Positions 14,218-57,526 of a stretch of 64,000 nucleotides of DNA are shown here, piece after piece (positions within the stretch are counted from its first letter, which is position 1; the number at the start of each line of letters is the position of its first letter). This stretch comes from a virus. Lineage: Duplodnaviria > Caudoviricetes. The notes beneath the pieces are model-generated. The model did no database searches. It was not told the DNA's origin and worked only from the letters and a program-made list of their open reading frames with translations. Location: positions 1 to 64,000 of IMG/VR virus record IMGVR_UViG_3300013383_000025; one strand, written 5' to 3'. Both the position numbers and the translations under genes were made by a program.

Positions 14218-15025
14218 ATGGAATTGCGGCTAATATCTGCGGAGTTAGCCTTGGCTTGGGGATGCGTCCTATAAGCTCCATAATAGAGGAAAAGCCTGAA
14301 CGCTTTTCGCTGTCATATGACAGAATTTATCTTATCGGTAGCGTCAGTTGCAAATGGCGCTACCAACCTAAATTGATTCATTCTTTGCTAGGTGATAGCT
14401 ACGGCTGGTTAATCATGCTTGCGGGGCGATTGACGCATCTAGTAGGGTTGAATATAATCGAGCCGTGAATCCACAATTCAGCGGAGCCTAATACGAGCAT
14501 GACGTTGGCTGTGGCGGGCTACGTCAATATAGTATCGAAAATCCTATCCTTGATGATAGGCGTATAGCAACAAGTGTGTTATACGAACGTATGAAGCATA
14601 TGGCTCGGTTGTCAATGAGTGATATGTGGACGCTTATCGAAGGTTTGCGGTATACCATAAGGCAACGATGAAAACCGTATATTCAAAAACGCTTCTGATA
14701 TGCGGCAAAGAAATATCAGGTGATTCTGCTATAAGTAGGCAAAGGTGAGATGAGCAGACATCTAAGACCCATTGCACCATATTTCCCAACATAGCGCCAT
14801 GCGTGGGTGAAATAAGATGAGGCGCACTGCGGTTCCCGTGTGCATGGGATGAGGGATTAAATAAGACCAAATTGGCGGTAACACCAAGCGAGTCTTAGCC
14901 GTGATTAAAACATAACAGTGAGTGGCGCTAGATGCTTGATGGCGCTTGACAAGTAAGAGCTTTAACGAAATGCTTGTATCTAGGCACATACTGAAACTGC
15001 CTGTCGCTACTACTCATTGGCGGCT
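14218..15025 (+). ncRNA. Candidate large, ornate structured ncRNA (~800 nt; may extend to the terminator at ~15225)
   Basis: No credible ORF; dedicated promoter; many nested helices with G-U pairs, including long-range 14611-20/15012-21 and 14457-67/14599-609. Confidence 0.75.
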
Positions 15026-17926: not shown

Positions 17927-18065
17927 TATTTGCCTGTGAAGCAATGGCTATGTTGGCGTGTTGTTGTGGAGGCGCTATTAGGGTTTAGTGAAATCCAAGT
18001 TCCAACTAGACTTAATCAAAAGCCGAAAATAAAAACACTCAAAAATATAAAACAAAGAAAGGAGG

Positions 18066-25938: not shown

Positions 25939-26517
25939 ATGTACAATTCATTGTCAAGGCTACCAAGCATACCATATAATATCATGGTGTACCTAGCCAA
26001 ATCGACCGACCCTATGGCTGATATTTTCTGGAAGATGCTGGCATATAAGGACTATAAGGCGCTGAGCCATGAGTCACTTACATTCAAGCAGAAGATGCAA
26101 CTGGTGTGGGCGCAGGGCAAGCAGGATAATTACAACGTATTTCTGACTAATCTAATTGAGGACGCTATGGCTGAATCTAAGCAGATTGTTAAGATTTACC
26201 AATATTATATCCATGCCTCTGAGTTATATACTAGCACAGTAGTCTATGCGTTTGATTGCCTATATGGCGGTCAGATGAGCCTAGTTGACTATGACGGTAT
26301 TCCTGTCAATCGCGGAGATTTGTTCATTCATTGCATTTTATACTTACTTAATGGTGTAGATGTAGGCGGCGTTGGCAAGCTCATGTTCCTAGATGATATG
26401 AGCCGATATAGCGCGGCGCGGTCAACCATTGGCAATAATAAGACCTTTACAGGTGTACAGCTCTATATGGCTGTCAATGTAGGTGATGCTGGCAAGGAGA
26501 CTAGTTGTGGCGATTGA
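25939..26517 (+). CDS. Tail completion/terminator protein
   Basis: LNGVDVGGVGKL pattern; synteny. Confidence 0.55.
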   Translation: MYNSLSRLPSIPYNIMVYLAKSTDPMADIFWKMLAYKDYKALSHESLTFKQKMQLVWAQGKQDNYNVFLTNLIEDAMAESKQIVKIYQYYIHASELYTSTVVYAFDCLYGGQMSLVDYDGIPVNRGDLFIHCILYLLNGVDVGGVGKLMFLDDMSRYSAARSTIGNNKTFTGVQLYMAVNVGDAGKETSCGD

Positions 26518-27331
26518 TATAGCCGTCCTTGAGAAGGCATATTTTTATTTCGATAAGCCAGTGCCATATAAGCTATCTGACACGACACATATAGATATCA
26601 CGCCTATATCAGTATATGATAGTGAGGTCTTTTTGTCAAGTTGTGATATTCTTCAAATAGATAAAAATGCGCTCAATTCCGTTGAGATAATTCAGATGAG
26701 CTATCTTGATTTTTTATTCAAGGTCATGTTGCCAACAGACCAATCAAAGATAGGGCTAGATAAATTCTGTAATATCATGAAATTGTGTCTTGGTATGCCA
26801 GATTGGAAAATCAAGATGAATGAAAAGAAGAAAATCAGCCTAGTTGCTCCCGATGATTCATTCGAGATTACAGGCAAGCAATTCGATGATATCAAACGGG
26901 TTATATTATATCAGAATATAGCGCATTATGACGATACATATATTGACCCAGACTTGAAAAAGGCAATGGCCGATGTTGACAGATTGAAAAGCAAGGGTAT
27001 TGACGTGCCGACGTTAGAGCGGCGTATGGCTATTATCACGGCTCATTGCGGTATTGGTAAACGGGTACTTATGCAATATTCCATGCGGTCATTACAGTTA
27101 CTGTTTGAAGAATGTGCAGGTGAGGTTGAGTTCACAACCTTGCGTCCAATCATGCTATATGCCGGTAAAGCCAAAGAGCTTGAGCATTGGATATACAAGA
27201 AGAAGAAAGATAAGTTTGACGGATATATTACATCTGTTGAATCCTACAATAAATCTATGGGTGGAGATGGCAAGGTAAAACAAGCCGACCCCAATACGAT
27301 TGCGAATATAAACAATATTGTAAATAAATAA
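26507..27331 (+). CDS. Tail assembly chaperone-like protein
   Basis: FDKPVPY, IDKN, MSYLDFL, FDDIK.VILYQN; synteny. Confidence 0.55.
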   Translation: MAIDIAVLEKAYFYFDKPVPYKLSDTTHIDITPISVYDSEVFLSSCDILQIDKNALNSVEIIQMSYLDFLFKVMLPTDQSKIGLDKFCNIMKLCLGMPDWKIKMNEKKKISLVAPDDSFEITGKQFDDIKRVILYQNIAHYDDTYIDPDLKKAMADVDRLKSKGIDVPTLERRMAIITAHCGIGKRVLMQYSMRSLQLLFEECAGEVEFTTLRPIMLYAGKAKELEHWIYKKKKDKFDGYITSVESYNKSMGGDGKVKQADPNTIANINNIVNK

Positions 27332-27345
27332 GGAGGAAATTCTAT

Positions 27346-27480
27346 ATGAGAAAATTCCTAGCTGGCGTTGGCGATGCTATTCTCCTAAAAGGTCAGAATA
27401 TCATTGGCTTCGCTAAGACTTTGACCGAAAGCACCTTCGGCTTCACTATTTCTTCAGAGGAAATCAGAGGTGGCAAGGGT
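27346..27480 (+). CDS. Major tail protein, exon 1 (45 codons)
   Basis: AGGAGG RBS; MRKFLAGVGDA...EEIRGGKG; missed by the ORF track. Confidence 0.85.
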
Positions 27481-27941
27481 AATAATTGCTCTCTACGTTG
27501 AGTAATCAGCGTATGACTTCGGGTTAAATGCTTTGAATCCCTAAAGCCCACACACCTAAACAGTAGTTGGAAACGACAAGCTGAATGGTTGCGAAAGTAG
27601 AAAAAAGTTGTGGGATGACTACATGGTCAAATCCTAAATAGTCTATGCCGATAAAAATGGGTGTTTAGCAGAGAAATCCCTAAATATATTGACATATTTA
27701 TAGTAATATGATGTAATATACATGGGAAACTTTCAACGAATATCTCCTTGTGGGAGAAGTAGAACCTCAAGCGTATGGAGGAGGAAAAATCCGACCCCTA
27801 TTAAATAGGGTGAACATATATTCTACTCTCATGTGAAAACATGAGCAGACTGCTAGTGATAGTAAGTCGATATTGGCGTTGCGACCCAATATGAATACAA
27901 AATATTTTATACCATTTTTTTTGGTATAAAATATAATAGGC
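27481..27941 (+). mobile_element. ORF-less group I intron in the major tail gene (junction +/-1 nt uncertain)
   Basis: P1 AGGGT/GCTCT with U.G pair; P7 GAATA 27738/TATTC 27819; GAACATATATTCT J8/7; removal restores EIRGGKG-NALIGKYYHD. Confidence 0.85.
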
Positions 27942-28871
27942 AATGCACTAATCGGTAAATATTACCATGATTCCGGTCTTACTGTTCAGATTACTGACTC
28001 TTGCTTCAAGCTTGAGTATATTGCCGCTAATCTAGGCGTTGACCTAACCAAAGGCGGTCTTGGTGTTTATCAGAATGAGCTTACCGTTGCTACGGCTGGT
28101 CAGGTCACTCTACCACAGTCCCCGTCCACAGTTGCAGGCTCTCTAATCGGCTGGTATCGTAAACCCGGTGAAGCCGACTATTCTGTTGGTACTATCACTG
28201 AATCTACTGGCACTTATACTATGGCTATTCCTAATGCACAGGCTGGTGAGAAGTATTGTGTTATGTATTTCTATCAGAACGCCAATGCAGATAGCATCAT
28301 TATTCCTGTTGACTACGTCCCTGATGAGCTTCACGTCATCATTCTGAACGACCTGTTTAATGCAGATATTTCCACCACGAACAATGCAACGAAGATTGGC
28401 CGTCTGATTACTGATATTCCCAGACTACAGCTTGATGGTGCTCAAGACCTCAATTTGACCGCAACTTCCGCAGCCACTGTTTCTCTGTCTGGCTCTGCTC
28501 TAGCAGTTGACAACACCGATTCTTGCGAATCCGAGTCCTACTATGGCACTATGACCGAAGAAATCTTTGGTGCAAAGTGGCAGAACGAAGTCAAGGCTAT
28601 TGCATTTGAGGACGCTGACATGTCTCTAGCCGCTCAGGGTACTCAGACCGCTGTTTGCTATGTCCTGTTTGATGGCAATAAAGCGCCTAAGATTATGGAC
28701 AACTCCAACTTTACCTTTGCGGTTGAAGATGGCGACACCTATGCATCTGTTGACGCTAAGGGTGTTGTGACCGCTAAGGCGGCTGGCACGGCTCATATCT
28801 CTGCAACGCTCAAGGGCGCTGATGGTGGCGTTCCTGTCGTTGGTTATTTCGAGGTTACTGCAACCGGCTAA
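27942..28871 (+). CDS. Major tail protein, exon 2, with C-terminal Ig-like (Big_2) domain; spliced ~354 aa
   Basis: Open frame from 27942; ASVDAKGVVTAKAAGTAHISAT. Confidence 0.85.
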   Translation, partial: NALIGKYYHDSGLTVQITDSCFKLEYIAANLGVDLTKGGLGVYQNELTVATAGQVTLPQSPSTVAGSLIGWYRKPGEADYSVGTITESTGTYTMAIPNAQAGEKYCVMYFYQNANADSIIIPVDYVPDELHVIILNDLFNADISTTNNATKIGRLITDIPRLQLDGAQDLNLTATSAATVSLSGSALAVDNTDSCESESYYGTMTEEIFGAKWQNEVKAIAFEDADMSLAAQGTQTAVCYVLFDGNKAPKIMDNSNFTFAVEDGDTYASVDAKGVVTAKAAGTAHISATLKGADGGVPVVGYFEVTATG

Positions 28872-28884
28872 TTTGATTATTCCT

Positions 28885-28920
28885 AATGGGGAGAGATAGC
28901 AATATCTTTCCCCATTTTAT
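28885..28920 (+). terminator. Terminator after the major tail gene
   Basis: AATGGGGAGAGATAGCAATATCTTTCCCCATTTT hairpin. Confidence 0.75.
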
Positions 28921-28936
28921 TACGAGGTGAGAAATA

Positions 28937-29254
28937 ATGGATTGCCCATATTGCAATGTGGTTAATTATGAGAAAGTACCGACTTGTGATAAGCAAAGCG
29001 GTAACCCTATTTGTCCTCATGTGCGGCGTTGCTTAGAGCATCATATCTGGAAGCCCCTAGCGTATATGGCTAATTGTCCAATTAAGACCGCGCCAACCGG
29101 CAATGTCCAGTTTGAGAGACATGGATATCTATATGTTCAGGTTGATGACAAAGTCATCAAGGTAAAGAACCCGTATGGCTACATCCCTGACAATGTAGAA
29201 CTAAGGAAATATAAAGGAACATATAAGGTAGTAAAGGAGAATAAGGAACAATGA
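28937..29254 (+). CDS. Hypothetical Cys-rich protein
   Basis: GAGGTG RBS; CPYC...CPHVRRC. Confidence 0.75.
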   Translation: MDCPYCNVVNYEKVPTCDKQSGNPICPHVRRCLEHHIWKPLAYMANCPIKTAPTGNVQFERHGYLYVQVDDKVIKVKNPYGYIPDNVELRKYKGTYKVVKENKEQ

Positions 29255-29646
29255 AGGAAAATATTATGAGTAAAGAACCAGTAGAGATTAAGGAATACGG
29301 CATCAAGGTCAATCCGTACCTGACATATAGCCAGATTCAGTCTATTGTTGATGGACTAAAAAAGCTGGATTCATGGGCGGCTAGACAGCAGAGTATTGAT
29401 ATGTGTATCCTCTATTTCGCGACCGACTTGAAGAAGGAAGAGATTGAGGCGCACGACCATGATTATTGGCTCAAGACCGGCGTTATTGAAGAGGTACAGG
29501 CGCGGATTGAGAATATCTTCCAACTATATGACGCTATTAAATATGAGGAATCGCTACAGAAGTCCATTACTCAGATTGCAAGAGAAATGCCACGATTCAG
29601 CAATAAGGTCGATGAGGTGATGAAACTTGCCTCAAGCAAGAAATGA
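29251..29646 (+). CDS. Hypothetical protein, possible tail assembly chaperone
   Basis: Lies between the tail tube and tape measure genes. Confidence 0.6.
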   Translation: MKENIMSKEPVEIKEYGIKVNPYLTYSQIQSIVDGLKKLDSWAARQQSIDMCILYFATDLKKEEIEAHDHDYWLKTGVIEEVQARIENIFQLYDAIKYEESLQKSITQIAREMPRFSNKVDEVMKLASSKK

Positions 29647-30175
29647 TAAAGAAGTCCTAGCTATGTTGCGTAGCCCCATTATGAAAGCGATAAATTATGT
29701 TATAGATAAAATATATGATGAGAATATTGGCGCTATTCATGATGTGGTCTATATGGCATATAGCCCAGAAGAATATAATCGTACTGGCGATTTCTATGGA
29801 GCATGGGGCGCTGGTACAACCAAAGCACTGAACGAGCGAACGAGCCGTGGCACATTTGAATACAAGCCCGAAAAAATGAGCATTGGTAGCACCGACCCGC
29901 AATCATCTAATTATGCACAGCATATTGGCGTAGGTGGCGATTTTTATGGGCAGGATGCGCGACCATATTTAGCCGAACTGATATACAATGGCGCAACCGG
30001 TTCATTTTTTGGGGATGGCGCATTTCGTAAGCAACGTGATGCATGGGCTGAATTAAATAAGCGCATAGGTAGACGTAAGATGAAACAATGGATGAAAGAA
30101 GGGTTGGAGGCGGCTGGGCTTAAAGTGCAGATGCACAATAAGGCTATAGAGGTCACCACAACCAAGGTGGACTAG
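29627..30175 (+). CDS. Putative neck/tail completion protein
   Basis: VVY.AYSP.EY.RTG motif. Confidence 0.55.
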   Translation: MPQARNDKEVLAMLRSPIMKAINYVIDKIYDENIGAIHDVVYMAYSPEEYNRTGDFYGAWGAGTTKALNERTSRGTFEYKPEKMSIGSTDPQSSNYAQHIGVGGDFYGQDARPYLAELIYNGATGSFFGDGAFRKQRDAWAELNKRIGRRKMKQWMKEGLEAAGLKVQMHNKAIEVTTTKVD

Positions 30176-30177
30176 AT

Positions 30178-30684
30178 ATGAGATATATGGGAATAGACGC
30201 ATCTTCTACCTGTACTGGAATTGCCGTATTTGAAGATGACAAGCTTATTTATCATGGCGCGGTCAAGCCATCAAAAGGCCTGCATTGGCGTGAGCGACTT
30301 GAAGAAGAGGGCGAAGAAATCGAGGCGATTATCAAGCAATATAAACCGTCCTGTATTTATATTGAGGATGTTCCTTTGATGGGCAAACAGATGCAGACAC
30401 TTGTGTTGCTTGGGGCGGTACAGGGATATATACTCAGTATTGCCACACATTATAATGTGCCAGTTCATTTTTTATTACCGTCTCAATGGCGCAGCGATAT
30501 TGGCTTGTTTGATGGCTCAAAGATGGGCACAAAGCGAGATGCGATGAAGGAGAAGGCCGTACTGACGGCTAACGAAAAATTTGGGCTTAATCTAAGATGG
30601 GTGAAGCCAAAAAGTAGGCTCAATGATGATGATATCGCAGAGTCTATTCTTATAGCCTACTCACAAATAAAAAAGGGAGTGTGA
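30178..30684 (+). CDS. RuvC-like Holliday junction resolvase
   Basis: MGIDASSTCTG, IEDV, PSQWRS, DDDIAES. Confidence 0.85.
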   Translation: MRYMGIDASSTCTGIAVFEDDKLIYHGAVKPSKGLHWRERLEEEGEEIEAIIKQYKPSCIYIEDVPLMGKQMQTLVLLGAVQGYILSIATHYNVPVHFLLPSQWRSDIGLFDGSKMGTKRDAMKEKAVLTANEKFGLNLRWVKPKSRLNDDDIAESILIAYSQIKKGV

Positions 30685-30687
30685 TGA

Positions 30688-31086
30688 ATGGCTGGAAGTA
30701 ACTCAAACTACTCGATTCTGGTCGATGTTCAGCTTCAAGAAGAGAGTATAAAGAAGCAATTAAAGCAAATCCAAAATAGCAAGGATATGCAAATCAACTT
30801 CAAGGTTGGAGCAGATGGGCTAGACAAGGTAGCTAAGAACGCCAATGAGGCGACCGATGCTACTAAGCGGCTCAACGATTCTGGTGAAGACCTGCAAATG
30901 ACGTTCAACGTGGCAAATGAGGTATTTAGTAAATTCTCAGATGTCATTAGAAGTATGGTTGGTCAGGTCTATGAACTTGATGATGCACTTACAGAGTTTC
31001 GTAAAGTCTCCGAGCTGTCTGGCTCTGAACTTGACAATTATGTAGACAAATTAACCAAAATCGGTCAAACAGTTGGCCGCACCGGT
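30688..31086 (+). CDS. Tape measure protein, exon 1 (133 codons)
   Basis: ELDDALTEFRKVS...GQTVGRTG, start of a phage tail tape-measure domain. Confidence 0.9.
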
Positions 31087-31433
31087 AAACCAAATCGGTC
31101 TGAGCCGGTATGTCGCGATGGAAAAGCGGCATAGAGAACAGCCCCTAAACCCTTGAAAGCCTCAAGAGCCTTATCACTACAACATGAGGATGAGATATGC
31201 CTGAGTGTGAATTATTCATTATTTACAATGAATTTGTGCGAAAGCAGAAAGACGATAAGGATGATTCCATGGGTAAAAGCTCTAAAGAATCTGTCACGAA
31301 TAATGTATAAAATTCGTGACAAAAGGGCAGATTGGGCACGAAGTCCTGATGAGGGATGTGTCAATCGAATATACAGGGCGGCCCTCCAAAATATATAGGG
31401 TGAAGAATTATTCAGGAAGGGATTGAAAACCCC

Positions 31434-31462
31434 TTGACAAATTATCTGATATATGCTATGGT
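31434..31462 (+). promoter_or_regulatory. Intron-internal sigmaA promoter
   Basis: TTGACA-17-TATGGT with extended -10 TG. Confidence 0.75.
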
Positions 31463-31495
31463 ATAGATACTTGATAGAGAGAAGAGGTATCTAGC

Positions 31496-31699
31496 ATGAT
31501 TACAATGTCTATCGTTATTTTTTGCGGCACTATTTATTGTCTTGGTTGGCTCGCCATCATTATTTTACAGGCTTTATTTCAACCAATTGTCTGTCTGTTT
31601 AGGCGATTATTCAACAGTGGTGATGATGTACCTGAGATTATCGATGACAATGTGGCAGAAGTTGAAACAACCAAGGATGATACATGGGGGAGATTGTAA
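31496..31699 (+). CDS. Intron-borne small membrane protein A (67 aa)
   Basis: AGAGGT RBS; N-terminal hydrophobic helix, acidic tail ending KDDTWGRL. Confidence 0.75.
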   Translation: MITMSIVIFCGTIYCLGWLAIIILQALFQPIVCLFRRLFNSGDDVPEIIDDNVAEVETTKDDTWGRL

Positions 31700-31902
31700 T
31701 GGAGAGCGTATACACATCGGCTATTATTATTTGGCTCATTTTCTTCTGTTGGTTTACATATAAATGTTGTGTACCAAGATATGCAAAGCCGGGCGATAGA
31801 ACGCCGGAAGAGCGCAAACAAGATGAAGAAGAAAAGCGGCGTGATATAGCACAAGTAAAAGCCCAAGATAAATATGATAATGATTGGGGATATATTAGAT
31901 AA
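31699..31902 (+). CDS. Intron-borne small membrane protein B (67 aa)
   Basis: TAATG overlap with A; GGGGAG RBS; hydrophobic helix, charged tail ending DNDWGYIR. Confidence 0.75.
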   Translation: MESVYTSAIIIWLIFFCWFTYKCCVPRYAKPGDRTPEERKQDEEEKRRDIAQVKAQDKYDNDWGYIR

Positions 31903-31912
31903 TTTATAACCG

Positions 31913-34900
31913 TCGGAAATGGTTGAAGCTGCAACAAGCTTCAGAAAAAATAGCTTTAATGATAGCGATTCAGCAACACTGGCAAAGGTGGCTACTACAT
32001 TCCAGAATGTCAGCGATGAGGCAATAAGCGCAAGTGAATCAGCCGACTTTATTATTGCCCAAATGAAGGCATTTAATATTGAGGCTGATGACGCAGAGCA
32101 TATCATCGATGCGGTCAACGCTGTAAGTAACTCCTATGCTGTGTCATCTGGGCAATTAGCCAAGAATCTTGGTAATATGTCCTCGGCGTTGGCGGTTGGC
32201 AACAATTCATTTGAAGAAAGTCTTGGTCTTCTGACGGCTGGCGTTGAGGTGACACGAAATGCAAGCAAGGTATCTCGCGCACTTGTGTCTGTGCAATCTC
32301 GCCTGAACCAAGTTATCGATGAATCATCGTCTACGGGGCAAGCGTTAACAGAATGGTACCAAGAGCATGGGATTGCGATTCTTGACCAAGAGGGACAACT
32401 TCGTAGTCTATACGATGTATTAACAGACGTTTCCGAAATTTGGCCGACGTTAACAAAGAATGAACAGGCGTATTATCTGAATCAGCAAGCGGGTGCTAAC
32501 CAGTCACAGAATCTTGCTGCTATTCTTTCAAATTTCGACACGGCGGCAAAAGCGACCGCAACCGCACTGAATTCCGCAGGTTCGGCAATGCGCGAGAACG
32601 AAGCGTATCAATCCTCACTCGAATATCAAACCTCAGAGCTTAAAGCTGAGTTTCAAGATCTAGCAAACAATGTCATTGATAAACAGGTTATAACTGGATT
32701 CTTAAATCTCGGTCAAACAATGCTCAAGGTTGCCAATACAGACTTTGGTCAATTTGTAACTAAAGTAGGATTACTTGGCGGTGCTAGTTGGGGCATTGAG
32801 AGCTTGCTTCATGTGAGTAAAATTTTGCCAACCATTGGCAAACAGTTTACCAACTTGGGCACAGCTATTAAATTAGCGGCCGGTGGAGCGGGTACTTTTG
32901 GCGAGGCGATTGCAGCAGTTGGTGGGGGAGCTAGTGTAGCCCTGCCAATTATACTTGCCATCTCAGCTGCTATTATCGGATGTATAGAGGCGTATAAGGC
33001 ATTTGAAGAAGCCCAAGAAGCCAAAAAATTTGAGAATCTAGTTAATAACTATGAGTCGCTTAAAGAAGAAGCAGATGGCGCGGCAGACAAGCTAGAAGAG
33101 CTAAAGCAAAAGCTAGAAGACCTTAACGCCGTGCCAGAGGATGACCGAGACCAACAGTGGCGTGATGAACAAGCTGAGGTTAAGACGCTTATTGAATATT
33201 ATAATCAGCTTGAACGTGCGAGAAAGGCGCAAGCTGATGAGGCAGGGGCTGCGGCATATGGCGCAGACAGAGAAACCGGCGTTACAGTTGGACAATACTA
33301 TCAAGGCAAATATGGCGTTGAATCAAAAGAAATTGGTAGATATGCGACAACCACGGAAGCTGTAACCAAACTCGCTGAAGAAAATGACGTAACTCTAACA
33401 AGGGAACAGATGAATGAACTATCTGAGCTAACCGATGATGGTGAACGTGCTGCCAAAGCCATTGATTTCCTTAAACAGAATCTTGAAGCTCTGCATTATA
33501 CATTTGATTCTACCACGGTATCTGCGTCTGAGTATCAGTCCACTCAGGGACAACTCATGCTCGATTTGGCTGAAACAGCAAGTAAATCCGGTGAGGTATC
33601 AGATGCAGTATTAGAGCAACGTGATGCCTATATGAATGCTAATGAAGCTGAGTATTTATACCTTATTGGGCTTGGAACGCTGAATGAAGCACAACAGAAG
33701 TTTGTAAACGGCTACGAAGCCATTGCTGAAATTGGTGGGACTCAAACTCAGAACATTCGAGAGCTAGGCACAGCCGCAGAAGAATCAGTGGGCGCTTTTG
33801 AGCAATACAATAACATACTTGCGAATTATGAAGCTGCAACAGCAGGAGCATCTGGTGCAACTGAGAATCTTGTTAAATCGTTATTTGATACCAATGGTCA
33901 GCTTACCGATACTGCCAGTTATGCTTTGTCGACGAATGGCTCTATGGCAGACATGGCACAGTCATTTATTCAAGCCCAACAAGCGCAGTCTCAAGCAAAC
34001 TTCCAAAACCTAATTAACCAAATATATTCAGTCGGTCAAGCGGCATCAATAACGACTTCTCAAATATCAAGTATGATGTCCGCTGCTGGTGTTGGAATTG
34101 GAATTAGTGATACAGAATTATCAAAAAATCTTCGTCGCACCTATCAAGAAAAGTATAAGAAGAGCGTAGAAAGCGACCCCGCAGCATATAAAAAATGGTT
34201 GCAGGACTATGCTTATAAGGCTGGACAAGAGAAATATCAAATAGAGCAAAAGAAATATCAAGAGCAACTTGAGCAGATATCGTCTTTTGTCTCATCGTCT
34301 TCTGGTGGCGGTGGCAGTTCATCCTCGACCAAATCCGACCAAGAAGAAGTCAAAGCCCAAACCATCAACACGATTGAAGAACTGCGCGAATATCTGACTG
34401 ATGAATCAACACGTCTCAAGCTGATTGACCCAGACATTAGTAAATCTGATTTACAGTCGACCCTATCAGAAGTAGCCACTATATATCAATCCTATCAGGA
34501 TTATCTGTCTCAACTCAAGCAACAAGGGTTTGATGAAACAAGCGAACAATATAAAGCTGCCGAGGCTGAATTTGCTCAATTCCTAGCGGTGCTTGAAGAC
34601 CTATTTAATCAGATTGCTCAAAAGGGTAATTATACCATTGAAGAGCTGTATCAAAAATTGCAGAGTGCATTGGGCGATAGTAGCGAATTGGTAAGTAGTC
34701 TGGCTGACGGTTTTAGCTCTGTCTCAAGTAGCGTAGACGAAGCTACCAGTAGTCTGAAGCAGATGATCAAGCAAGGCAAAAAGTTACAAACGCTCAATGT
34801 TGTCGCAATGGATTCGGCTACGGGGCATCGTGTTGAAATTAGCGAAGCTTATAAAAGTGGTGCTTTAAGTGCCGAAGACATTGTTAGCGGATACGAATCA

Positions 34901-36358
34901 GCTTGGGACACTCTTCGTGCCGAATATGACTATGACCAAGAGCAATATGAGCAAGCCGTCCAAGATGCGCTTAAAAATGCCGCCGCTGAAAAAGATGTAG
35001 CCGAAGAAGTATCCAATGAATATGAGTGGCAGAACAAGTTGCTTGAGGATAAGATTGCCCTTGAAGAAAAGCTAGAGGCGCTAGAAAGAGCCAAACAACG
35101 CCGTATGCTTGTATATAGCGAAGGGCGATTCCAATATATGCAAGATGCTGACGCAATATCTAGCGCTCAAGCCGATTATCAAGAGACATATAGAGATGTT
35201 GAGCAAAGCCAGATTCAGTCATTGATGAATATGATTGGCAATGAATCATCGTCATTCTTCACTGATTATTTCTCAAAAGAAAACGCAGATGTTTTAGGAT
35301 ATGGTGAGGCATTGCGCGATCACCTGATGGGCTATCTTGGCGAAAAAATTGGCGGCTCTCTATTTGAGGGCATGGACGATGCCGGGCTTTATGATATATT
35401 TGGCGATGCGATGCAACCAGGTGCGGCATATTCTCAGATTCTGGCAGCTTATCGAGCAGAACAAGAAGCAGCTGAAAAACGCGCTGAAAAAAAAGCGGCT
35501 CTCAAGAAGCAAATTCGTGAAGAGAATGTAAGAAAATGGGGCGTCGACACTGATTTTGGTGAAAAGATAAAGAACGCTGAGTCCCAAGCAGAGGCGGCGT
35601 ATTGGGCGGACTTGCGCGATGCCAAGCTTGAGATGATTAAAGAGTACAAAGAGGCATATGGTACGGAGGCGGCCTCTAAATATTTTGGTACTGACGCATC
35701 GAGTATTGATAGTTGGAAATCCAATGAAGATCTATATCGAGAAGCGTGGGATAGCGGTAACACTGGATATGCTACATCTGCAAGCGACTTTGAGCGTCAA
35801 CATTTAGCGTATGACAGCGATGGCAGTGATAGGTATACTGTAGAAAATCCAGACCTTGAAGCGGCTGAATATAATGTTGCGTCTGGTCTTACGTTTGATG
35901 GATATAGCAAGGCAGACCAAGCTCTATATAACAAGATATTTGAAGGCTCTGTTACAAAAGACCAATTACAAAAATTATATGATAGCGACGAATTATCTGA
36001 TGTGACAAAGGGCTATATCCTTAATCTTGCCTCAGAGTTAAAAAAATCTGGTGCAACCGGTTATGCCAGTGGTACAAAATCAGCAAGTGGCGGGTTATCT
36101 CTGGTTGGTGAAAATGGCCCAGAGCTTAGAGTCCTCAATCAAGGCGACGGTATCTTGCCAAATAGTATCACAGATAATTTATGGCGCTGGGGTTCTATGA
36201 CACCTAGTGATATGCTGACATCGTTAGCCCAGAAGGCGCAGAGTTGGGCGCAGACGCTAAATATTAGCAATGTCACGTTGCCCAATGTGCGCGATGCTCA
36301 GTCGTTCGTAAGCGGACTTAGAGAATTGGCGCAACAATATGTAACAAGACGTAGTTAA
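31913..36358 (+). CDS. Tape measure protein, exon 2 (spliced ~1614 aa)
   Basis: HIIDAVNAVSN...GQLRSLYDVL, long helical region, C-terminal YASGT...LVGENGPEL. Confidence 0.92.
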   Translation, partial: SEMVEAATSFRKNSFNDSDSATLAKVATTFQNVSDEAISASESADFIIAQMKAFNIEADDAEHIIDAVNAVSNSYAVSSGQLAKNLGNMSSALAVGNNSFEESLGLLTAGVEVTRNASKVSRALVSVQSRLNQVIDESSSTGQALTEWYQEHGIAILDQEGQLRSLYDVLTDVSEIWPTLTKNEQAYYLNQQAGANQSQNLAAILSNFDTAAKATATALNSAGSAMRENEAYQSSLEYQTSELKAEFQDLANNVIDKQVITGFLNLGQTMLKVANTDFGQFVTKVGLLGGASWGIESLLHVSKILPTIGKQFTNLGTAIKLAAGGAGTFGEAIAAVGGGASVALPIILAISAAIIGCIEAYKAFEEAQEAKKFENLVNNYESLKEEADGAADKLEELKQKLEDLNAVPEDDRDQQWRDEQAEVKTLIEYYNQLERARKAQADEAGAAAYGADRETGVTVGQYYQGKYGVESKEIGRYATTTEAVTKLAEENDVTLTREQMNELSELTDDGERAAKAIDFLKQNLEALHYTFDSTTVSASEYQSTQGQLMLDLAETASKSGEVSDAVLEQRDAYMNANEAEYLYLIGLGTLNEAQQKFVNGYEAIAEIGGTQTQNIRELGTAAEESVGAFEQYNNILANYEAATAGASGATENLVKSLFDTNGQLTDTASYALSTNGSMADMAQSFIQAQQAQSQANFQNLINQIYSVGQAASITTSQISSMMSAAGVGIGISDTELSKNLRRTYQEKYKKSVESDPAAYKKWLQDYAYKAGQEKYQIEQKKYQEQLEQISSFVSSSSGGGGSSSSTKSDQEEVKAQTINTIEELREYLTDESTRLKLIDPDISKSDLQSTLSEVATIYQSYQDYLSQLKQQGFDETSEQYKAAEAEFAQFLAVLEDLFNQIAQKGNYTIEELYQKLQSALGDSSELVSSLADGFSSVSSSVDEATSSLKQMIKQGKKLQTLNVVAMDSATGHRVEISEAYKSGALSAEDIVSGYESAWDTLRAEYDYDQEQYEQAVQDALKNAAAEKDVAEEVSNEYEWQNKLLEDKIALEEKLEALERAKQRRMLVYSEGRFQYMQDADAISSAQADYQETYRDVEQSQIQSLMNMIGNESSSFFTDYFSKENADVLGYGEALRDHLMGYLGEKIGGSLFEGMDDAGLYDIFGDAMQPGAAYSQILAAYRAEQEAAEKRAEKKAALKKQIREENVRKWGVDTDFGEKIKNAESQAEAAYWADLRDAKLEMIKEYKEAYGTEAASKYFGTDASSIDSWKSNEDLYREAWDSGNTGYATSASDFERQHLAYDSDGSDRYTVENPDLEAAEYNVASGLTFDGYSKADQALYNKIFEGSVTKDQLQKLYDSDELSDVTKGYILNLASELKKSGATGYASGTKSASGGLSLVGENGPELRVLNQGDGILPNSITDNLWRWGSMTPSDMLTSLAQKAQSWAQTLNISNVTLPNVRDAQSFVSGLRELAQQYVTRRS

Positions 36359-36369
36359 TATAATATTAC

Positions 36370-36405
36370 ATCATGGTGGGTTGAGTTATATCCGCTCACC
36401 ATGAT
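36370..36405 (+). terminator. Hairpin after the tape measure gene
   Basis: ATCATGGTGGG...CTCACCATGAT. Confidence 0.55.
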
Positions 36406-36425
36406 TATCATAAAGAGGTGATTTA

Positions 36426-36743
36426 GTGTTATCTAGCGAAGAATTATTACAATCCATTGATATCTTGGCTCAAAATGCAGTTAAAGATTCAGTAAAAATA
36501 TATACGGCCATTGTCACCTCTGTAGCGGATGATTATACCTGTTCAGTTAAAGTGAATGGTAAGACGCATAGTGGTGTGACATATTATGGGGCGACTCCTA
36601 GTACCAATAAAAGCTATAGGGTATTTTGCCCAAACGGCTCAATGAATCAGGCATTTATTGTTGTACCATTGCCAGCTTACACAAAAGATGATGCTGGGAA
36701 AACATTGTCCGTGGATAGCGATGGGCGATTAGTATGGAAATGA
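36426..36743 (+). CDS. Small baseplate/spike-like protein
   Basis: OB-like beta N-terminus; DAGKTLSV..DG..W tail. Confidence 0.6.
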   Translation: MLSSEELLQSIDILAQNAVKDSVKIYTAIVTSVADDYTCSVKVNGKTHSGVTYYGATPSTNKSYRVFCPNGSMNQAFIVVPLPAYTKDDAGKTLSVDSDGRLVWK

Positions 36744-36760
36744 TGTGGAGGTGATATAAT

Positions 36761-39139
36761 TTGAATTTAAAGTTAATTGGAACCAAAGTGACACAAGATG
36801 TGCAAACATTTGCATTTCAGAAAAACAACTTGGTTGATAATATTACGGTTGAAGTTGATACTGACGAATCATGGCAATATAAACTAGACATACAATACGC
36901 GCGTAAAGATTGTTCTGGCAAGACATTATATAATATTATAAACTTAAATAGAACGGGTAATATCTGTACTGCACAATTGACTACAGATATGCTTCCATTT
37001 AACGGGCGCTATATTATGCAACTAAGAGCCATCAATGGGAATAAAATCCAACACAGCGACACATTTAATGCGTGGGTAGAGTATAGCGTTGAGCCAGGGT
37101 CGACATACGTCGATACCCCTAGTGAATTTTATCAAATCGAACAAAACATTACAGAAATTAACAACAATCCTCCTTATCCCGGACCGAATGGGTATTGGAT
37201 GATATGGAATCCAGATACTCACCAATACGAGCAGAGCGATAAACCTATCCCAGATGGCAGCCTCCCAGACATCGATGAATCCACTAATGGAAAATATCTA
37301 ACTAATGATGGCGAAAAATCATATTGGGCAGATGTGCAAGGTGGTAGTAGCGAAAGCAAAATTGACAAGATTGAAGTTAATAGCATAGAACAACCTATAA
37401 TTGATAAGGTAGTACAGATAGTTATTAGTAAGGATACGATTGGGCTGAATAACGTCAATAATACATCAGATGCTGATAAACCTATCTCTATACAGACACA
37501 AGCCGCCCTTAATAAAAAGCAGGATGTTATCAATGTTAATGGATTGCTCAAAGGCGATGAAACCGGCGCTGTTTCTCAAGCAGAGGCAGGAATTGATTAT
37601 ATTGCTCCTGATGCAATTAGTCAATTACTAGGTGCTAGCGCAGATAAGATACCAAGCGAAAAGGCCGTTTCAGATGCTATTGCATCTATGAGTGGTGGCG
37701 ATATGCTACAATCGGTGTATGACCCTAGTGGTGTGGTAAAAGATGCTGGTGGTATTCCTTCTTATGTAGAAGCCAATGGTGGTAAAATTGACGCAATCCA
37801 AGTTAATGGCGAAACTCAGGATATCGTCAACAAAAAGGTCAACATTATAGTCCCAACCAATGTTAGCGAATTAAACAACGATTCTAAGTATATTACGAAT
37901 GAAGCATTATCTGATTATGCGACAAAGGCAGAATTACCAACCAAGACTAGTCAGCTAGAAAACGATAGTAATTTTATCAACGAATCGGCACTAGATGGCT
38001 ATGTAAAGACGGTTGATATGCCGACTAAGATTAGCCAATTGGAAAACGATGCTGGCTATGTTACTATCGAGACCGCCCCTGTGAAATCTGTCAATGGTCA
38101 GATTGGCAATGTAAAAATAGATATTCCAAAGCAGTATGAATTGCCAGTGGCAACTGCCGAGACGTTGGGCGGCATTAAAGCCGAGGCTAAAACAGAGGAA
38201 CAGACTGTGCCCGTTGGTATAGATGTCGATGGCAAGTTGTGGGTTCATATTGAAGGCGGCAGCTCTATTGACACTATTTTAGCTGATAAAGTTATGTTTG
38301 ATGGTGATATGGTATTTACCGAGCAATTTGGTAAATATGAACCAAGTGGCGGTAAGGTCACTATTCCATCAGATGGAAAGAGCTTAAAAGAGTTGTTGCT
38401 TGATGCTTATAGTGAGGATAAAAATCCTGTTATCACACAACCAAGTGTTGGCATTACAAGTCCAACAGCTAGAGCTTATGAAGTTGGCACGGTTGTTACG
38501 CCTCAATATAGCGGTTCATTCAACGCTGGTAAATATGAATACGGGCCAACTCCAACTGGCGTATCTGTCACAGAATGGCAAGTGACAAACAACGTGACTG
38601 CTGAAACAAGGGCGACTCAGGCCGGTTCATTTGCGACCTATACTGTACCAGATGGCTCAAATTATAGAATTACCATTAAAGCAACATATAGTGACGGCAT
38701 GATTCCTGTTACCGCACTAGGCGCTCAATATGAGGTCGGTAAAATTTCAGCATCAAGCAAGTCTGCTCAAAGCGGCGCTATCAGCAGCTATCGCAATAGT
38801 TTTTATGGTACATTGGCTGATAAATCGGTGGATGTTACAAATTCCATTATTAGAGGTTTACAACAAAAATCTAATAAAACTTTAGCTAATGGTAATACAT
38901 TTACCGTAAATGTCCCTATCGGTGCAGAGGCCGTGCTTATTGCTTATCCGGCCACGTTGCGTGATGTTACGTCAATCAAGGACGTAAACGGATTAAACGC
39001 CGACATTACATCTGCATTTGTCGGCAGTACCATAGACGTTACTGGCGCGAATGAATATACCGCCATTAGTTATAAGCTTTATAGGCTTGATTATGCAAAA
39101 CCAAATGATGTAGCAAATAAATATACTGTTACTATTTAA
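36761..39139 (+). CDS. Baseplate/tail fibre protein (BppU-like N-terminus, fibre repeats)
   Basis: GLNNVNNTSDADKP, PTKTSQLENDS and LPVATAETLGGIK repeats. Confidence 0.7.
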   Translation: MNLKLIGTKVTQDVQTFAFQKNNLVDNITVEVDTDESWQYKLDIQYARKDCSGKTLYNIINLNRTGNICTAQLTTDMLPFNGRYIMQLRAINGNKIQHSDTFNAWVEYSVEPGSTYVDTPSEFYQIEQNITEINNNPPYPGPNGYWMIWNPDTHQYEQSDKPIPDGSLPDIDESTNGKYLTNDGEKSYWADVQGGSSESKIDKIEVNSIEQPIIDKVVQIVISKDTIGLNNVNNTSDADKPISIQTQAALNKKQDVINVNGLLKGDETGAVSQAEAGIDYIAPDAISQLLGASADKIPSEKAVSDAIASMSGGDMLQSVYDPSGVVKDAGGIPSYVEANGGKIDAIQVNGETQDIVNKKVNIIVPTNVSELNNDSKYITNEALSDYATKAELPTKTSQLENDSNFINESALDGYVKTVDMPTKISQLENDAGYVTIETAPVKSVNGQIGNVKIDIPKQYELPVATAETLGGIKAEAKTEEQTVPVGIDVDGKLWVHIEGGSSIDTILADKVMFDGDMVFTEQFGKYEPSGGKVTIPSDGKSLKELLLDAYSEDKNPVITQPSVGITSPTARAYEVGTVVTPQYSGSFNAGKYEYGPTPTGVSVTEWQVTNNVTAETRATQAGSFATYTVPDGSNYRITIKATYSDGMIPVTALGAQYEVGKISASSKSAQSGAISSYRNSFYGTLADKSVDVTNSIIRGLQQKSNKTLANGNTFTVNVPIGAEAVLIAYPATLRDVTSIKDVNGLNADITSAFVGSTIDVTGANEYTAISYKLYRLDYAKPNDVANKYTVTI

Positions 39140-39156
39140 GAAGGGAGGTTGGCCTA

Positions 39157-39612
39157 ATGGCTATTGAATCGTTACCAAAATTAAATTTTAGCGTGCCACT
39201 TGCCATGACGGCGGCAATGCCGGTTGATTACAATTCCTACTTTGACGATTATGACAAGGCTGTGGCGGCAGCGTTAACCGCTGAAGAAATAGGCTCTTCT
39301 AATACTATTTATCATTATGGTCAAGAAATTATAGTTATTACCCAGGCATCTGCTGACCTCTATCTTATTCAACCAGATAGGACACTAAAACTGATAAGTA
39401 GTTCTGGTATAGGCGACGACAAAACATTTGTGTTCACACAATCAATTGCTTCTGACACATGGGATATTCAACACGACTTGAATAAATATCCATCTATAGC
39501 TATCGTCGACTCTGGTAACAATATTGTGTATGGCGATGTTGAATATGTGAATAAAAATAATGTGGTATGTAAATTCACATCGGCATTTAGCGGAAAAGCC
39601 TACCTAAATTAA
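39157..39612 (+). CDS. Virion structural protein
   Basis: C-terminal WDIQHDLNKYPS...FSGKAYLN domain. Confidence 0.7.
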   Translation: MAIESLPKLNFSVPLAMTAAMPVDYNSYFDDYDKAVAAALTAEEIGSSNTIYHYGQEIIVITQASADLYLIQPDRTLKLISSSGIGDDKTFVFTQSIASDTWDIQHDLNKYPSIAIVDSGNNIVYGDVEYVNKNNVVCKFTSAFSGKAYLN

Positions 39613-39655
39613 AAGGTAGTCGATATATAAATGTATATTAGGAGGAAATTTTATT

Positions 39656-41398
39656 ATGGCGAAATATTTAACCAATATTGATTTAATGAAAAACGAGCTT
39701 CAGAATGCCGTTCTTCAACCACTAGCGGTTGCTCCATCTAATCCAAAAGAAGGCCAGTTCTACTATAATAGTGGTGATAAGGTTGTATATAGATATGATG
39801 GTACAAGTTGGGGACCGATTGGAGTTGTATATCAGCAAGGTTCTACTACTGGGGCTGTCATTACAGGTCTTGATGAAAGTGGAAACGTAACAACCACTGA
39901 CGTTGTCAATCTGACTCTAGCTGGGTATACACCTGTTGAAGATGGCTATGTGAGTGCTGATATGAGTCTTGAAGATGCGTTGAAGGCGCTTGATACAGCT
40001 GTTAAAAACGCTGTTGCTGGTGGTGGCGAAGTCAACCAGAACGCATGGTCTAATATCAGCGTAAAGAAGCAGAGTACGGCTACTACAGCTGTGACTGGTG
40101 CAACTGCCGACACCACCCTTGCCGCAGCAAGCAAGACAGATACGTTCTCTGTAGCGTCTGGTAATAAGTGGGTTGACATCAACGGTTCTGGCAAGACGGT
40201 TAATATTGGTCATAGTCTGAGCGGTGCTACTGCTGGCACATATGGCGCGGCTGGCTCTGTGGCTCAGGTTACAGTTGATGAGGCGGGTCATGTTACTGCG
40301 GCGCAGAATGTAGCCATTACCCCAGCGGCTATTGGCGCGGCAACTACTGATGCCGTCGAGGCGGCTCAGACGGCTGCCGATAATGCACAGACAGCAGCAG
40401 ATAGCAAAGTAGCATCTGTTGGTGCTACTGCCAATGGTGGTATTACTATTGGTGGTACGGCCACTGAGCCCACTGTTGGTATTAAGCTAGATACAACCAA
40501 TGGCAATGCGGCCTCTCTATCTGCTGACGGCCTCATGGTCACCATTCCAGAGGTCAACGTGCCAGAATATACCATTACTAAGTTGACTACAGCTACAAGC
40601 GGCTATCTAGCATCCTATCAGCTTGAGAAGGATGGGGTTAAGGCTGGTGAAGTTATCAACATTCCCAAGGACTATCTAGTTAAGAGCGCGTCCATCAAGA
40701 CCTCTGCTGGTGAAGATGACCCATCTGGTTTACCTGCCGACTCTAAGTATATTGATTTCGTTATCAATACACATGACACTGCGTCAGGGACTGGCACAGA
40801 GAGCCATATTTATTTAAATGTTGAAGACCTAGTTGATGTTTATACGGCTGGTAATGGCATTAGCATTGATGCATCTAATGTTGTGTCTGCTAAGGTTGTT
40901 GCTGGCAACGGTTTATCTATTGACGAATCTGGCATTAAGATGGGTGCGGCTTCTGCTACTACCGCAGGTGCTATGAGCGCCGATGATTTCAGCAAGCTGG
41001 CTGGTATTGAAGCTGGCGCAACCAATAATAAAATTACACTAAACGGCACGACAACCAAGAACCCAAGTTTCTATGCGCCTACTACCGGAGGTACTGCCGG
41101 TCAGCATCTTGTCTCTAATGGCTCTGATGCGCCAGCTTGGCAAAATATGCCAACTATTCTTAAGAAATATACTGCTACAAATGGTGAACTTACTGCCACC
41201 GGTGGTGTATACTCATGGACAATTGCTAAGGCAACACATGGAGTAGAAACACCGGCAACTGTGCAACTATATGAAGTGGCAACTAATGAACAGGTCATTG
41301 CAGATGTTGTAATTGCCACCAATGGGGGGGTTACCATTAAAATTAACGGAACCGGTACTCTTGAGGCTGGCACATATAGAGTAGTAATCATTGGATAA
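39656..41398 (+). CDS. Tail fibre protein
   Basis: Ala/Thr/Gly-rich; AGAMSADD.SKL.GIEAGA; INIPKD.LVKS. Confidence 0.7.
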   Translation: MAKYLTNIDLMKNELQNAVLQPLAVAPSNPKEGQFYYNSGDKVVYRYDGTSWGPIGVVYQQGSTTGAVITGLDESGNVTTTDVVNLTLAGYTPVEDGYVSADMSLEDALKALDTAVKNAVAGGGEVNQNAWSNISVKKQSTATTAVTGATADTTLAAASKTDTFSVASGNKWVDINGSGKTVNIGHSLSGATAGTYGAAGSVAQVTVDEAGHVTAAQNVAITPAAIGAATTDAVEAAQTAADNAQTAADSKVASVGATANGGITIGGTATEPTVGIKLDTTNGNAASLSADGLMVTIPEVNVPEYTITKLTTATSGYLASYQLEKDGVKAGEVINIPKDYLVKSASIKTSAGEDDPSGLPADSKYIDFVINTHDTASGTGTESHIYLNVEDLVDVYTAGNGISIDASNVVSAKVVAGNGLSIDESGIKMGAASATTAGAMSADDFSKLAGIEAGATNNKITLNGTTTKNPSFYAPTTGGTAGQHLVSNGSDAPAWQNMPTILKKYTATNGELTATGGVYSWTIAKATHGVETPATVQLYEVATNEQVIADVVIATNGGVTIKINGTGTLEAGTYRVVIIG

Positions 41399-56588: not shown

Positions 56589-56805
56589 TAAATTCGCCTC
56601 CTTCCATATCATCTATTGCGTCATTGTAGCCTACGTCATAGCCGTCATCATAATTCTCTAGCATCATATATAGCATATTGGTAAATAGGTCACATGATGA
56701 ACGAGCCAAGCCAGACATGGTGGCAATGGGATTATCTGGGTCTTCAGGATAATACAGCTCTACACGGTATCTGCTACCATTGATACATAGTCGCGGTAGA
56801 ATCAT
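56575..56805 (-). CDS. Hypothetical protein
   Basis: YDDGYDVGYNDA; overlaps the HNH stop. Confidence 0.65.
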   Translation of the reverse strand: MILPRLCINGSRYRVELYYPEDPDNPIATMSGLARSSCDLFTNMLYMMLENYDDGYDVGYNDAIDDMEGGEFNVEV

Positions 56806-57428
56806 GTGCCAGTACCCTCCTTCGGCAAGAATCGACCAGTCTTCTCATCTCTTTTGTGTGGCTTTTTAGCGTTATGCAGTCTTATATGGTCGCTTTTAAG
56901 TAAAACTAATAAATTTGACGGATCGTTGTTAAGTCTATTTTCATCGATATGGTGCACGTCGTATTCTTTCTTTAGATACAACGCCCTATTGATTTCGACG
57001 CTATTTTCTTCTGTTAATAAATATTTTTCTGCAACGAGTCTGTGTTCAAATACAAAATTGTCACAATCTCTAAAAGGATGATCTAATACCCGGATTTTCC
57101 TATAACCATAATGAGTAATTTTTTCATCTGTTTTCCAAGTTGGATTTAATTTACCTTTTAAGCCGTACTGATGGTTCCCTTCACCTTTCATCCTTTTGCT
57201 TAAATATTTAAGATAGCATTCTTTCGAGCAAAAGACGTGCTTATAATTTTTTATATCTCGTGGGTTTGCATGAAAATTCTTATTGCACGTTGGACACACA
57301 TAATTTGGCTTTGTTAATGATTTTCTTAATTCAGACTGGCATTGTTTTGAACAGCATATGTGTTTCGCTTTTAATCTTGATGGGTGTATATTAAATTCTT
57401 TACCACACCATTCGCATTTATAAATCAT
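56802..57428 (-). CDS. Free-standing HNH endonuclease with Zn-finger repeats
   Basis: CEWCGK.F...CSKQC x2; FEHRLVAE...VHHIDENRLNNDPSNL. Confidence 0.9.
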   Translation of the reverse strand: MIYKCEWCGKEFNIHPSRLKAKHICCSKQCQSELRKSLTKPNYVCPTCNKNFHANPRDIKNYKHVFCSKECYLKYLSKRMKGEGNHQYGLKGKLNPTWKTDEKITHYGYRKIRVLDHPFRDCDNFVFEHRLVAEKYLLTEENSVEINRALYLKKEYDVHHIDENRLNNDPSNLLVLLKSDHIRLHNAKKPHKRDEKTGRFLPKEGTGT

Positions 57429-57526
57429 AAAATCTCTCCATTTCAAAGATTATATTTGGGTAGGGATGATAGGAAATGGCTATCATCCCTCAGAGCGAAA
57501 ATACGTCTATCCGCGCACCCTATCTA

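Follow-up and report, generated by a model that had tools for sequence, protein, structure and literature searches.

Group I-type intron in a phage tape measure gene and its predicted membrane-protein cassette

The window analysed here is a stretch of 64,000 nucleotides (nt), the first 64 kb of the 95,956-base virus record IMGVR_UViG_3300013383_000025 (Duplodnaviria; Caudoviricetes), in which a phage tape measure gene is interrupted by an insert at positions 31087 to 31912. We consider it probable, at roughly 0.7, that this insert is a divergent group I intron of an uncultured gut siphovirus-like phage (about 96 kb), carrying its own expression unit for membrane proteins. Splicing, promoter activity, membrane insertion and any function of this cassette are what we infer from the sequence.

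Interruption of the tape measure gene and fold of the intron

In a Pfam/PHROG search, the family matches of exon 1 are weak and of tape measure type (PF24164, PF20155 and phrog_2335); exon 2, which begins with SEMVEAATSFRKNSF..., matches PF10145 from profile position 17 (4.6e-21) and phrog_4211 (5.8e-54). If left unspliced, the exon 1 frame meets a stop codon at 31132-31134. We fetched 70 viral loci encoding proteins related to residues 1-300 of exon 2 and sought exon 1 upstream by tblastn. Half of the loci (35 of 70) gave an exon 1 homologue, which is contiguous with exon 2 in 9 cases and set apart from it by an insert of 458-2232 nt in 26. Residue 133 of exon 1 directly abuts residue 1 of exon 2 in four contiguous loci (L013, L015, L017 and L018), and the other five (L038, L041, L058, L064 and L059) are off by a few codons at the junction. 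Within a single long open frame, the contiguous relatives read ...VAKTG followed by TEMV(Q/D)AAT..., with a junction motif KTG-(T/S)(E/D)M (the hyphen marks the join). Because this join is gapless in the four relatives, the junction in the window, GRTG-SEMVEAAT, is exact to the residue, and the original prediction of an intron at 31087-31912 that splits the tape measure gene precisely in frame is borne out. In translation, removing 31087-31912 restores one continuous tape measure protein.

The nearest cultured phages, the Enterocloster bolteae phages PMBT24 and CB473P1 (42-44% identity in tape measure regions), are recorded with a single uninterrupted tape measure coding sequence spanning the insertion site. 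Among the database entries listed, gene callers gave exon 2 alone as a protein of 1390-1481 amino acids (aa) in 120 of 120. A DNA search of phage records with 30688-32400 returned only one trivial match of 48 nt.

A 25-nt stretch of helix P6 (31340-31364) served as the search pattern for the intron core. In the viral collection the pattern occurred in 61 loci, and all 52 with both exons visible have it at the same tape measure site; 41 loci with clean boundaries represent 39 distinct introns of 584 to 1066 nt. From the metagenome collection, 80 of 102 stretches were examined and 55 had clean boundaries, yielding 51 distinct introns, 39 of them new. The splice sites were tabulated for the 79 distinct introns with clean boundaries: that of the window and those from the viral and metagenome collections.

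At the 5' splice site, exon CCGGU pairs with the guide GCCGG (31104-31108) to form P1, with the wobble pair U31086.G31104 at the cut and covariation at two of the five positions. P1 had been predicted with six base pairs, including the U.G pair. The U.G pair stands, and the sixth pair (A31081-U31109) does not: U31109 belongs to the closing pair of P2, which covaries, and given this competition we count P1 as five pairs. The cut-site pair is U.G in 59 of the 79 introns. Further, the guide follows synonymous third-base changes of the glycine codon at the end of exon 1, which is good evidence for P1. P10 would form between UCUGA (31099-31103) and UCGGA of exon 2 (31913-31917), giving 5 bp that include one G.U pair, and the last intron base is G in all 79 introns (G31912 in the window); the predicted 5-bp P10 and terminal G thus both hold. 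P10 is missing or shorter in some relatives (L004 and L053).

We aligned the window with 20 relatives (21 sequences). P3 and P4 were placed manually, and pairing was counted over the whole structure, pseudoknot included. The alignment folds into P1, P2, P5 with a long extension, P6, P7, P8 and P9. Over the 65 pairs counted, 95.2% of 1359 cells hold standard pairs, compared with 28.9-43.3% when the 3' partners are slid by 1-3 columns; since the structure was partly derived from the same 21 sequences, this control is somewhat flattering. The compensatory changes are independent of that derivation: changes on both sides were found in 33 of the 65 pairs, as against 18.7 +/- 1.9 in shuffles, and none of 500 shuffles reached 33. 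P7, predicted earlier as GAATA/TATTC, varies among GAAUA/UAUUC, GACUA/UAGUC, GAACA/UGUUC and GAGUA/UAUUC, so the same pentamers covary across relatives. Two of its five pairs are compensatory and the rest are invariant, with the G-C and A-U pairs kept in 21 of 21 sequences. The flanks GUCAAUCGAAUAUA and GAAGAAUUAUUC at P7 recall what we take to be the classical R and S elements. The 5' 400 nt of the intron are more conserved than the exons. The distance from P7 to P3' leaves no room for P7.1/P7.2, which sets this intron apart from the IA1/IA2 tape measure introns of Bacillus prophages (PMC2504315).

Several observations weigh against a group I assignment at this site. The Rfam model RF00028 gave no match on the window at its gathering score, none in 30800-32200 at E values up to 10, and none at this site in 7 relatives, yet it does find 4 other introns in the tape measure gene of L039 (36 to 101 bits). 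The term 'canonical' in the original prediction was therefore too strong. P4 has only 3-4 bp, its register shifts between subgroups, and 62.9% of its cells are paired. In 20 of the 79 introns the cut-site pair is not U.G (C.A in 10, G-C in 6 and C-G in 4), and loss of the wobble in a quarter of an intron family is unusual for group I introns. A shifted 5' splice site that would rescue U.G in these 20 relatives was considered and rejected, as the last 10 exon bases hold no conserved U. The joint of 31086 to 31913 was not found in the contigs of four public runs (three RNA-type and one DNA); these contigs came from relatives and mostly cover the conserved core, and are uninformative on splicing either way. 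Taken together, we assign 31087-31912, by its sequence and covariation, to a divergent group I-type intron.

The cassette between P9 and the 3' splice site

The coordinates of two open reading frames (ORFs) of 67 aa, described in the original prediction as translationally coupled and as having an N-terminal transmembrane helix and a charged tail, are confirmed (Table 1), and the stop of ORF 1 overlaps the start of ORF 2 as TAATG. Any further open frames in 31087-31912 are short and overlapping (99 aa or less). Neither the two ORFs nor an 81-aa frame over the core matched a nuclease family, or had a meaningful Pfam or PHROG match. AlphaFold models ORF 2 with a confidently predicted helix at residues 2-24 and, beyond a loose linker, another at 36-63; the mean pLDDT (predicted local distance difference test) is 73. 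This model had no match among viral structures at E <= 0.001, and ESM Atlas returned unnamed viral clusters only. The GC content of the cargo (0.35-0.40) is slightly below that of the flanks (0.42-0.48), a difference on which we place no weight.

We found at least one small hydrophobic ORF in all 79 distinct introns. A filter flagged such cargo in 49 of the 51 metagenome introns, and the other 2 have a gene like these that begins with GTG. In the viral introns and the window, the cargo, with its hydrophobic N-terminal part, sits between P9 and the 3' splice site. Most introns carry one gene; the window, L120, L104, L129 and a number of metagenome loci have arrays of two, and L087, L094, L173 and L193 have arrays of three. 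Wherever the last gene is intact, 3 to about 30 nt separate its stop from the splice site, and nearly all cargo genes have a strong Shine-Dalgarno (SD) sequence. Variable cargo in the same intron of related phages, which had been suggested as a check, is thus seen as one to three genes, and the proposed role of the intron as carrier of a promoter-driven membrane-protein cassette extends to all 79 distinct introns.

The cargo proteins have one to three hydrophobic segments followed by a charged stretch of 25 to 40 residues. The C-terminus bears an aromatic residue and an invariant glycine, for example in KYDNDWGYIR, NEWGLDDDWRWGKL, EEYGPIDN, QEYGIIDFFDKDK and DDTWGRL. The two window ORFs, whose similar endings were noticed earlier, share this motif. 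Conservation in these proteins lies in this C-terminal motif, not in the transmembrane segments. Basic residues come after the last hydrophobic segment, and by the positive-inside rule a basic flank marks the cytoplasmic side; the conserved tail is thus probably cytoplasmic whatever the number of helices.

For genes of the DNDWGYIR type, the median ratio of nonsynonymous to synonymous substitution rates (dN/dS) was 0.23 (19 pairs); the RWGKL type had a median of 0.19 (56 pairs). Judged by these ratios, the cargo ORFs are real genes under purifying selection. This led us to reject decayed endonuclease fragments as a source of the cargo; in some relatives a nuclease-like ORF resides instead in a separate downstream intron (see below). 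In L103 and L007, the second cargo gene, of the DNDWGYIR type, is split over two frames (N-terminal helix and tail); the gene could be a frameshifted pseudogene, or the split could come from slippage or from a sequencing error in an A-run.

ORF 2 has 146 relatives in the protein database; all measure 62-72 residues, and they carry neither names nor Pfam domains. When 1.84 billion cluster representatives were searched with a profile, 27 matched at E <= 0.001, among which a 1346-aa match was judged spurious on reading, being repetitive sequence. For 22 cargo proteins, no Pfam, PHROG, NCBIfam or PADLOC family was common to more than two, all matches having E >= 0.0009; these proteins and the window ORFs matched no defence, holin, exclusion or nuclease family. 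The earlier statement that the intron holds no homing endonuclease is in line with this result. A back-translated YDN(D/E)WGY pattern was found in 9 viral loci, all 9 already known to carry this intron, and ORF 2 had no tblastn match in 50,697 phage records, among them the cultured relatives of 42-44% identity. By these searches, the cargo family is real, small and phage-restricted, and occurs only inside this intron as far as searched.

Upstream of the cargo lies a predicted promoter of the sigma-70/sigmaA type, TTGACA-17-TATGGT. It is the only plus-strand site with a TG extension that scores 10 of 12 in 26000-40000. In all 39 introns scored (L111, with a GTG start, was skipped), the first cargo gene has upstream of it a TTGACA-like hexamer and TAnnnT, spaced by 16-18 nt, and TG is present at -15/-14 in 38 of 39. 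The conserved layout supports, as a prediction, the sigmaA promoter proposed earlier at 31434-31462. Subgroups differ in their spacers yet retain the hexamers, which argues for a promoter rather than an RNA helix. The cassette is missing from intron-less relatives. A point against the reading of an independent expression unit is that no terminator-like site follows the cargo on the plus strand before 35665, so the cassette is not a textbook moron.

Most intron versions can form a hairpin whose 5' arm lies over the predicted transcription start. In 31 of 34 distinct leaders, the SD-AUG region is predicted to be more open in promoter-started than in read-through RNA (median unpaired probability 0.48 vs 0.28), an effect that is partly trivial, as shorter RNAs pair less anyway. 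The folding predictions are thus suggestive of a hairpin effect on SD-AUG access.

Table 1. Positions of the exons, intron helices, cargo genes and expression signals in the window
Feature	Position	Strand	Details
Tape measure exon 1	30688..31086	+	133 codons, ends ...IGQTVGRTG, last codon GGT; by translation
Group I-type intron	31087..31912	+	826 nt, ends in G
Internal guide	31099..31109	+	UCUGA (P10), then GCCGG(U) (P1); by sequence
P2 hairpin	31109..31133	+	AUGUCGC / GCGGCAU, conserved loop GAUGGNAAA; both-side changes in 5 of 7 counted pairs
P3	31141-31144 with 31376-31379	+	Encloses P4, P5 with its long extension, and P6; 3 of 4 pairs compensatory
P5 extension	within 31141..31379	+	GCGAAAGC loop, CAUGG...CUAAAG element
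P7	GAAUA 31367-31371 with UAUUC 31409-31413	+	Encloses P3' and P8
P8	CCC 31382-31384 with GGG 31398-31400	+	1 of 3 pairs compensatory
P9 hairpin	31417..31435	+	AAGGG...CCCUU; 5 of 5 pairs compensatory; 3' arm overlaps the -35 hexamer
Predicted sigma-70/sigmaA promoter	31434..31462	+	TTGACA 31434-31439, 17-nt spacer with TGn, TATGGT 31457-31462
Hairpin UAGAUAC...GUAUCUA	31464..31493	+	Between -10 and first start codon; predicted transcription start in 5' arm
Cargo ORF 1	31496..31699	+	67 aa: N-terminal hydrophobic helix, acidic tail, end DDTWGRL
Cargo ORF 2	31699..31902	+	67 aa (72 aa from 31684): N-terminal helix, charged helix, end KYDNDWGYIR
Tape measure exon 2	31913..36358	+	1481 codons + stop; in frame with exon 1

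Possible roles of the cargo and the genomic neighbourhood

We propose that the intron would fold in the late pre-mRNA into P1-P9, in which P3 and P7 form a pseudoknot, P5 is greatly extended and P7.1/P7.2 are lacking, and that its removal would join ...GRTG to SEMVEAAT..., giving a tape measure protein of 1614 residues. Between P9 and the 3' splice site, a near-consensus host-type promoter and the two overlapping 67-aa genes would replace the homing endonuclease. Starting within the intron and independently of the tail operon, host RNA polymerase would transcribe the cassette in a lysogen or at an early stage of infection, and the hairpin over the transcription start would lower cassette translation on the read-through precursor RNA, as in the intron ORFs of phage T4. 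Each cargo gene would then yield a membrane anchor and a charged, probably cytoplasmic tail ending in the aromatic-glycine motif, and the benefit of this cargo to the phage would keep the intron in place without a nuclease.

As to what that benefit may be, we tentatively put superinfection exclusion, or some other way of blocking the membrane step of DNA entry, in first place. The earlier proposals of an exclusion or immunity module linked to its cognate tape measure allele, and of a neutral insertion site, gained no support in this analysis. Imm of T4 is an early membrane protein by which a virulent phage excludes superinfection. Our suggestion is drawn by analogy from HK97 gene 15, a moron that is the closest described layout (PMC3594210). 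Two points speak against exclusion. The cargo has no sequence similarity to exclusion families (HK97 gp15/YebO, T4 Imm, Sie2009, Ltp and P22 SieA being the known exclusion proteins considered), nor to defence or holin families (Pfam, PHROG, NCBIfam and PADLOC), and no fold similarity to them among viral structures. The other point concerns the lifestyle of the phage: a tyrosine recombinase/integrase gene (PF00589, 117 bits; record positions 85839-86339, minus strand, outside the window), which bears on a temperate lifestyle, is present, and the intron core pattern occurs in only 1 contig (L136) among 185,579 species genomes, one that looks phage-sized and lies in a metagenome bin.

More doubtful is the further idea that the cargo blocks the tape-measure-dependent DNA entry of rivals, including intron-less ones, so that the intron would spread by exclusion and not by DNA cleavage. 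If true, the varying arrays of one to three genes would be an arms-race locus sheltered in an essential gene, and the unit would be selfish yet useful.

Alternatively, the cargo might be lysis-timing or early host-takeover membrane factors, holin- or antiholin-like, with the intron merely their location. With one to three transmembrane helices and a charged tail, it is similar in size and layout to numerous small proteins that phages use in lysis or early in infection, and from a host-type promoter its expression would probably be early. We nevertheless think this unlikely: no holin family matched in Pfam or PHROGs, the genes lie inside the tape measure gene with no adjoining endolysin, and the conserved part is the C-terminal motif instead of the transmembrane segments. 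Moreover, the cultured relatives of 42-44% identity have no detectable homologue by tblastn, so the cargo is not a core lysis system.

Small hydrophobic peptides are typical membrane toxins, and the cargo could act as such a toxin, or as an element of the addiction type, that stabilises the intron or harms those cells or phages from which it is lost; it would then serve the intron rather than the phage. Such a role would suit an intron that has no nuclease of its own and yet persists, never without cargo, in tape measure genes whose exon 1 identity falls to about 38%. The cassette revealed no antitoxin-like partner, antisense promoter or PADLOC match, and a charged tail with a conserved motif is unlike any type I toxin known to us, which makes this role distinctly improbable. 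It is very hard to believe that there is no intron at all, only a tape measure made as two polypeptides, of 148 aa and 1479 aa, whose genes flank an ordinary intergenic moron: the calling of exon 2 as a protein of its own in the 120 listed entries, the silence of RF00028 and the absence of spliced RNA from the contigs would fit, but the break falls within the KTG-(T/S)EM motif that is continuous in relatives, the 5' 400 nt exceed the exons in conservation and show helix covariation, the guide tracks synonymous changes in the last exon codons, and the last base is always G.

In 10 loci, the cargo intron is followed by a micro-exon of eight codons (24 nt; SEMIEATT in L088) and then by a second intron. 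Five of these tandem loci were read (L088, L110, L112, L115 and L130), and five were judged by boundaries only (L150, L176, L182, L186 and L201). The core of the second intron is classical, GAAUUGC...GGUUCAACGACUA...GAAGAUAUAGUC, and in the five loci read it contains an ORF of 264-271 residues with weak, DUF2726-type nuclease-like similarity. The second intron of L039 (L039:3709-3971) matches RF00028 at 96.6 bits and is without an ORF. A nuclease-bearing neighbour could drag the nuclease-less cargo intron along during homing.

Within the window, a second insert, also without an ORF, lies in a tail gene at 27465-27960. It has the GCGAAAG.AGAAA and CAUGG...CCUAAA extension motifs of the tape measure intron, and shares with it the core stretches AAUAUACA / AGGGUGAA..UAUUC. 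By these motifs it is probably a cargo-less sibling. RF00028 gave two matches below threshold, 61462-61626 (minus strand, 41.5 bits) and 60716-60878 (minus strand, 20.2 bits), beside or within the ribonucleotide-reductase-like ORFs 59175-60716 and 60743-61513; these are probably further introns. A free-standing HNH endonuclease gene (56802-57446, minus strand; phrog_1271, 8.8e-18) adjoins a dUTPase gene, so the phage carries homing-type nucleases elsewhere. The drum RNA motif RF02958 occurs twice on the plus strand, both times above its gathering threshold (14586-14682, 44.9 bits; 17931-18043, 52.9 bits). The host is probably a member of the gut Clostridia.

The usual view of phage group I introns is that they either convey homing endonucleases or are empty relics. 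In the family described here, about 80 distinct versions keep a predicted promoter and membrane-protein genes under selection, and none keeps a nuclease. This suggests that self-splicing can turn an essential gene into a safe store for accessory genes, and that intron maintenance may rest on cargo and not on homing. The cargo proteins, a family of narrow distribution that has no name and ends in a sharp motif, are now open to a simple test. As the intron is invisible to RF00028, the tape measure tends to be annotated as two genes, and its cargo as hypothetical proteins.

Comparison with known systems

Group I introns in tape measure genes are already in print. Prophages of the Bacillus cereus group have TMP-IVS1/2/3 in this gene (PMC2504315), and Vibrio phage ICP1 has three tape measure introns with splicing shown by reverse-transcription PCR and a varying nuclease content (PMC10448857). 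They resemble the present case in the host gene, the several insertion sites and the versions with and without endonucleases; some relatives of our window have additional RF00028-type introns in this gene as well. They differ in being IA1/IA2 introns with HNH-type nucleases, fragments or nothing, and no promoter-driven membrane-protein cassette is reported for them. A tail-gene intron without a nuclease is known from Cluster J mycobacteriophages (PMC3706429). In the open-access literature and preprints, we found no phage group I intron with a promoter-driven membrane-protein cassette, so within that literature the cargo predicted here, unlike tape measure introns as such, appears to be without a published description.

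Intron cargo that benefits its carrier against rivals has a counterpart in PhiPA3/PhiKZ, where an intron endonuclease serves phage-phage competition (Birkholz 2024, as summarised in PMC12908238); the weapon there is a nuclease acting on DNA, whereas the role here is hypothetical.

HK97 gp15 is a small inner-membrane exclusion protein, encoded by a moron with its own promoter beside the tape measure gene, and blocks genome injection in a manner that depends on the incoming tail (PMC3594210). The cassette is like gene 15 in being small membrane-protein coding sequence with its own, here predicted, promoter in a tail operon and missing from relatives. Gene 15 lies between genes, has a terminator and is YebO-related, whereas the present cargo is inside a ribozyme, with no terminator found and no named homologue. 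Exclusion is proven for gp15 and only guessed for the intron cargo.

IStrons and organellar group I introns, such as those of fungal mitochondrial rRNA with rps3, also carry genes beyond homing endonucleases. Unlike IStrons, the present intron has no transposase, and its cargo is phage-specific and, by prediction, separately promoted.

In the T4 nrdD intron, the ORF comes after the core, near the 3' end. The intron ORFs of T4 have internal promoters and a hairpin over the ribosome-binding site that forms only on read-through transcripts (PMC2988022). Compared with these, the cargo here consists of one to three small membrane proteins and not a nuclease, and the RNA is without P7.1/P7.2 and missed by RF00028. 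The predicted promoter is of the host sigma-70/sigmaA type in a late gene, whereas the T4 promoters are late or middle promoters in early genes. What the two have in common is the arrangement itself: an intron in a phage gene, holding an ORF with an internal promoter and a hairpin laid out in the same way.

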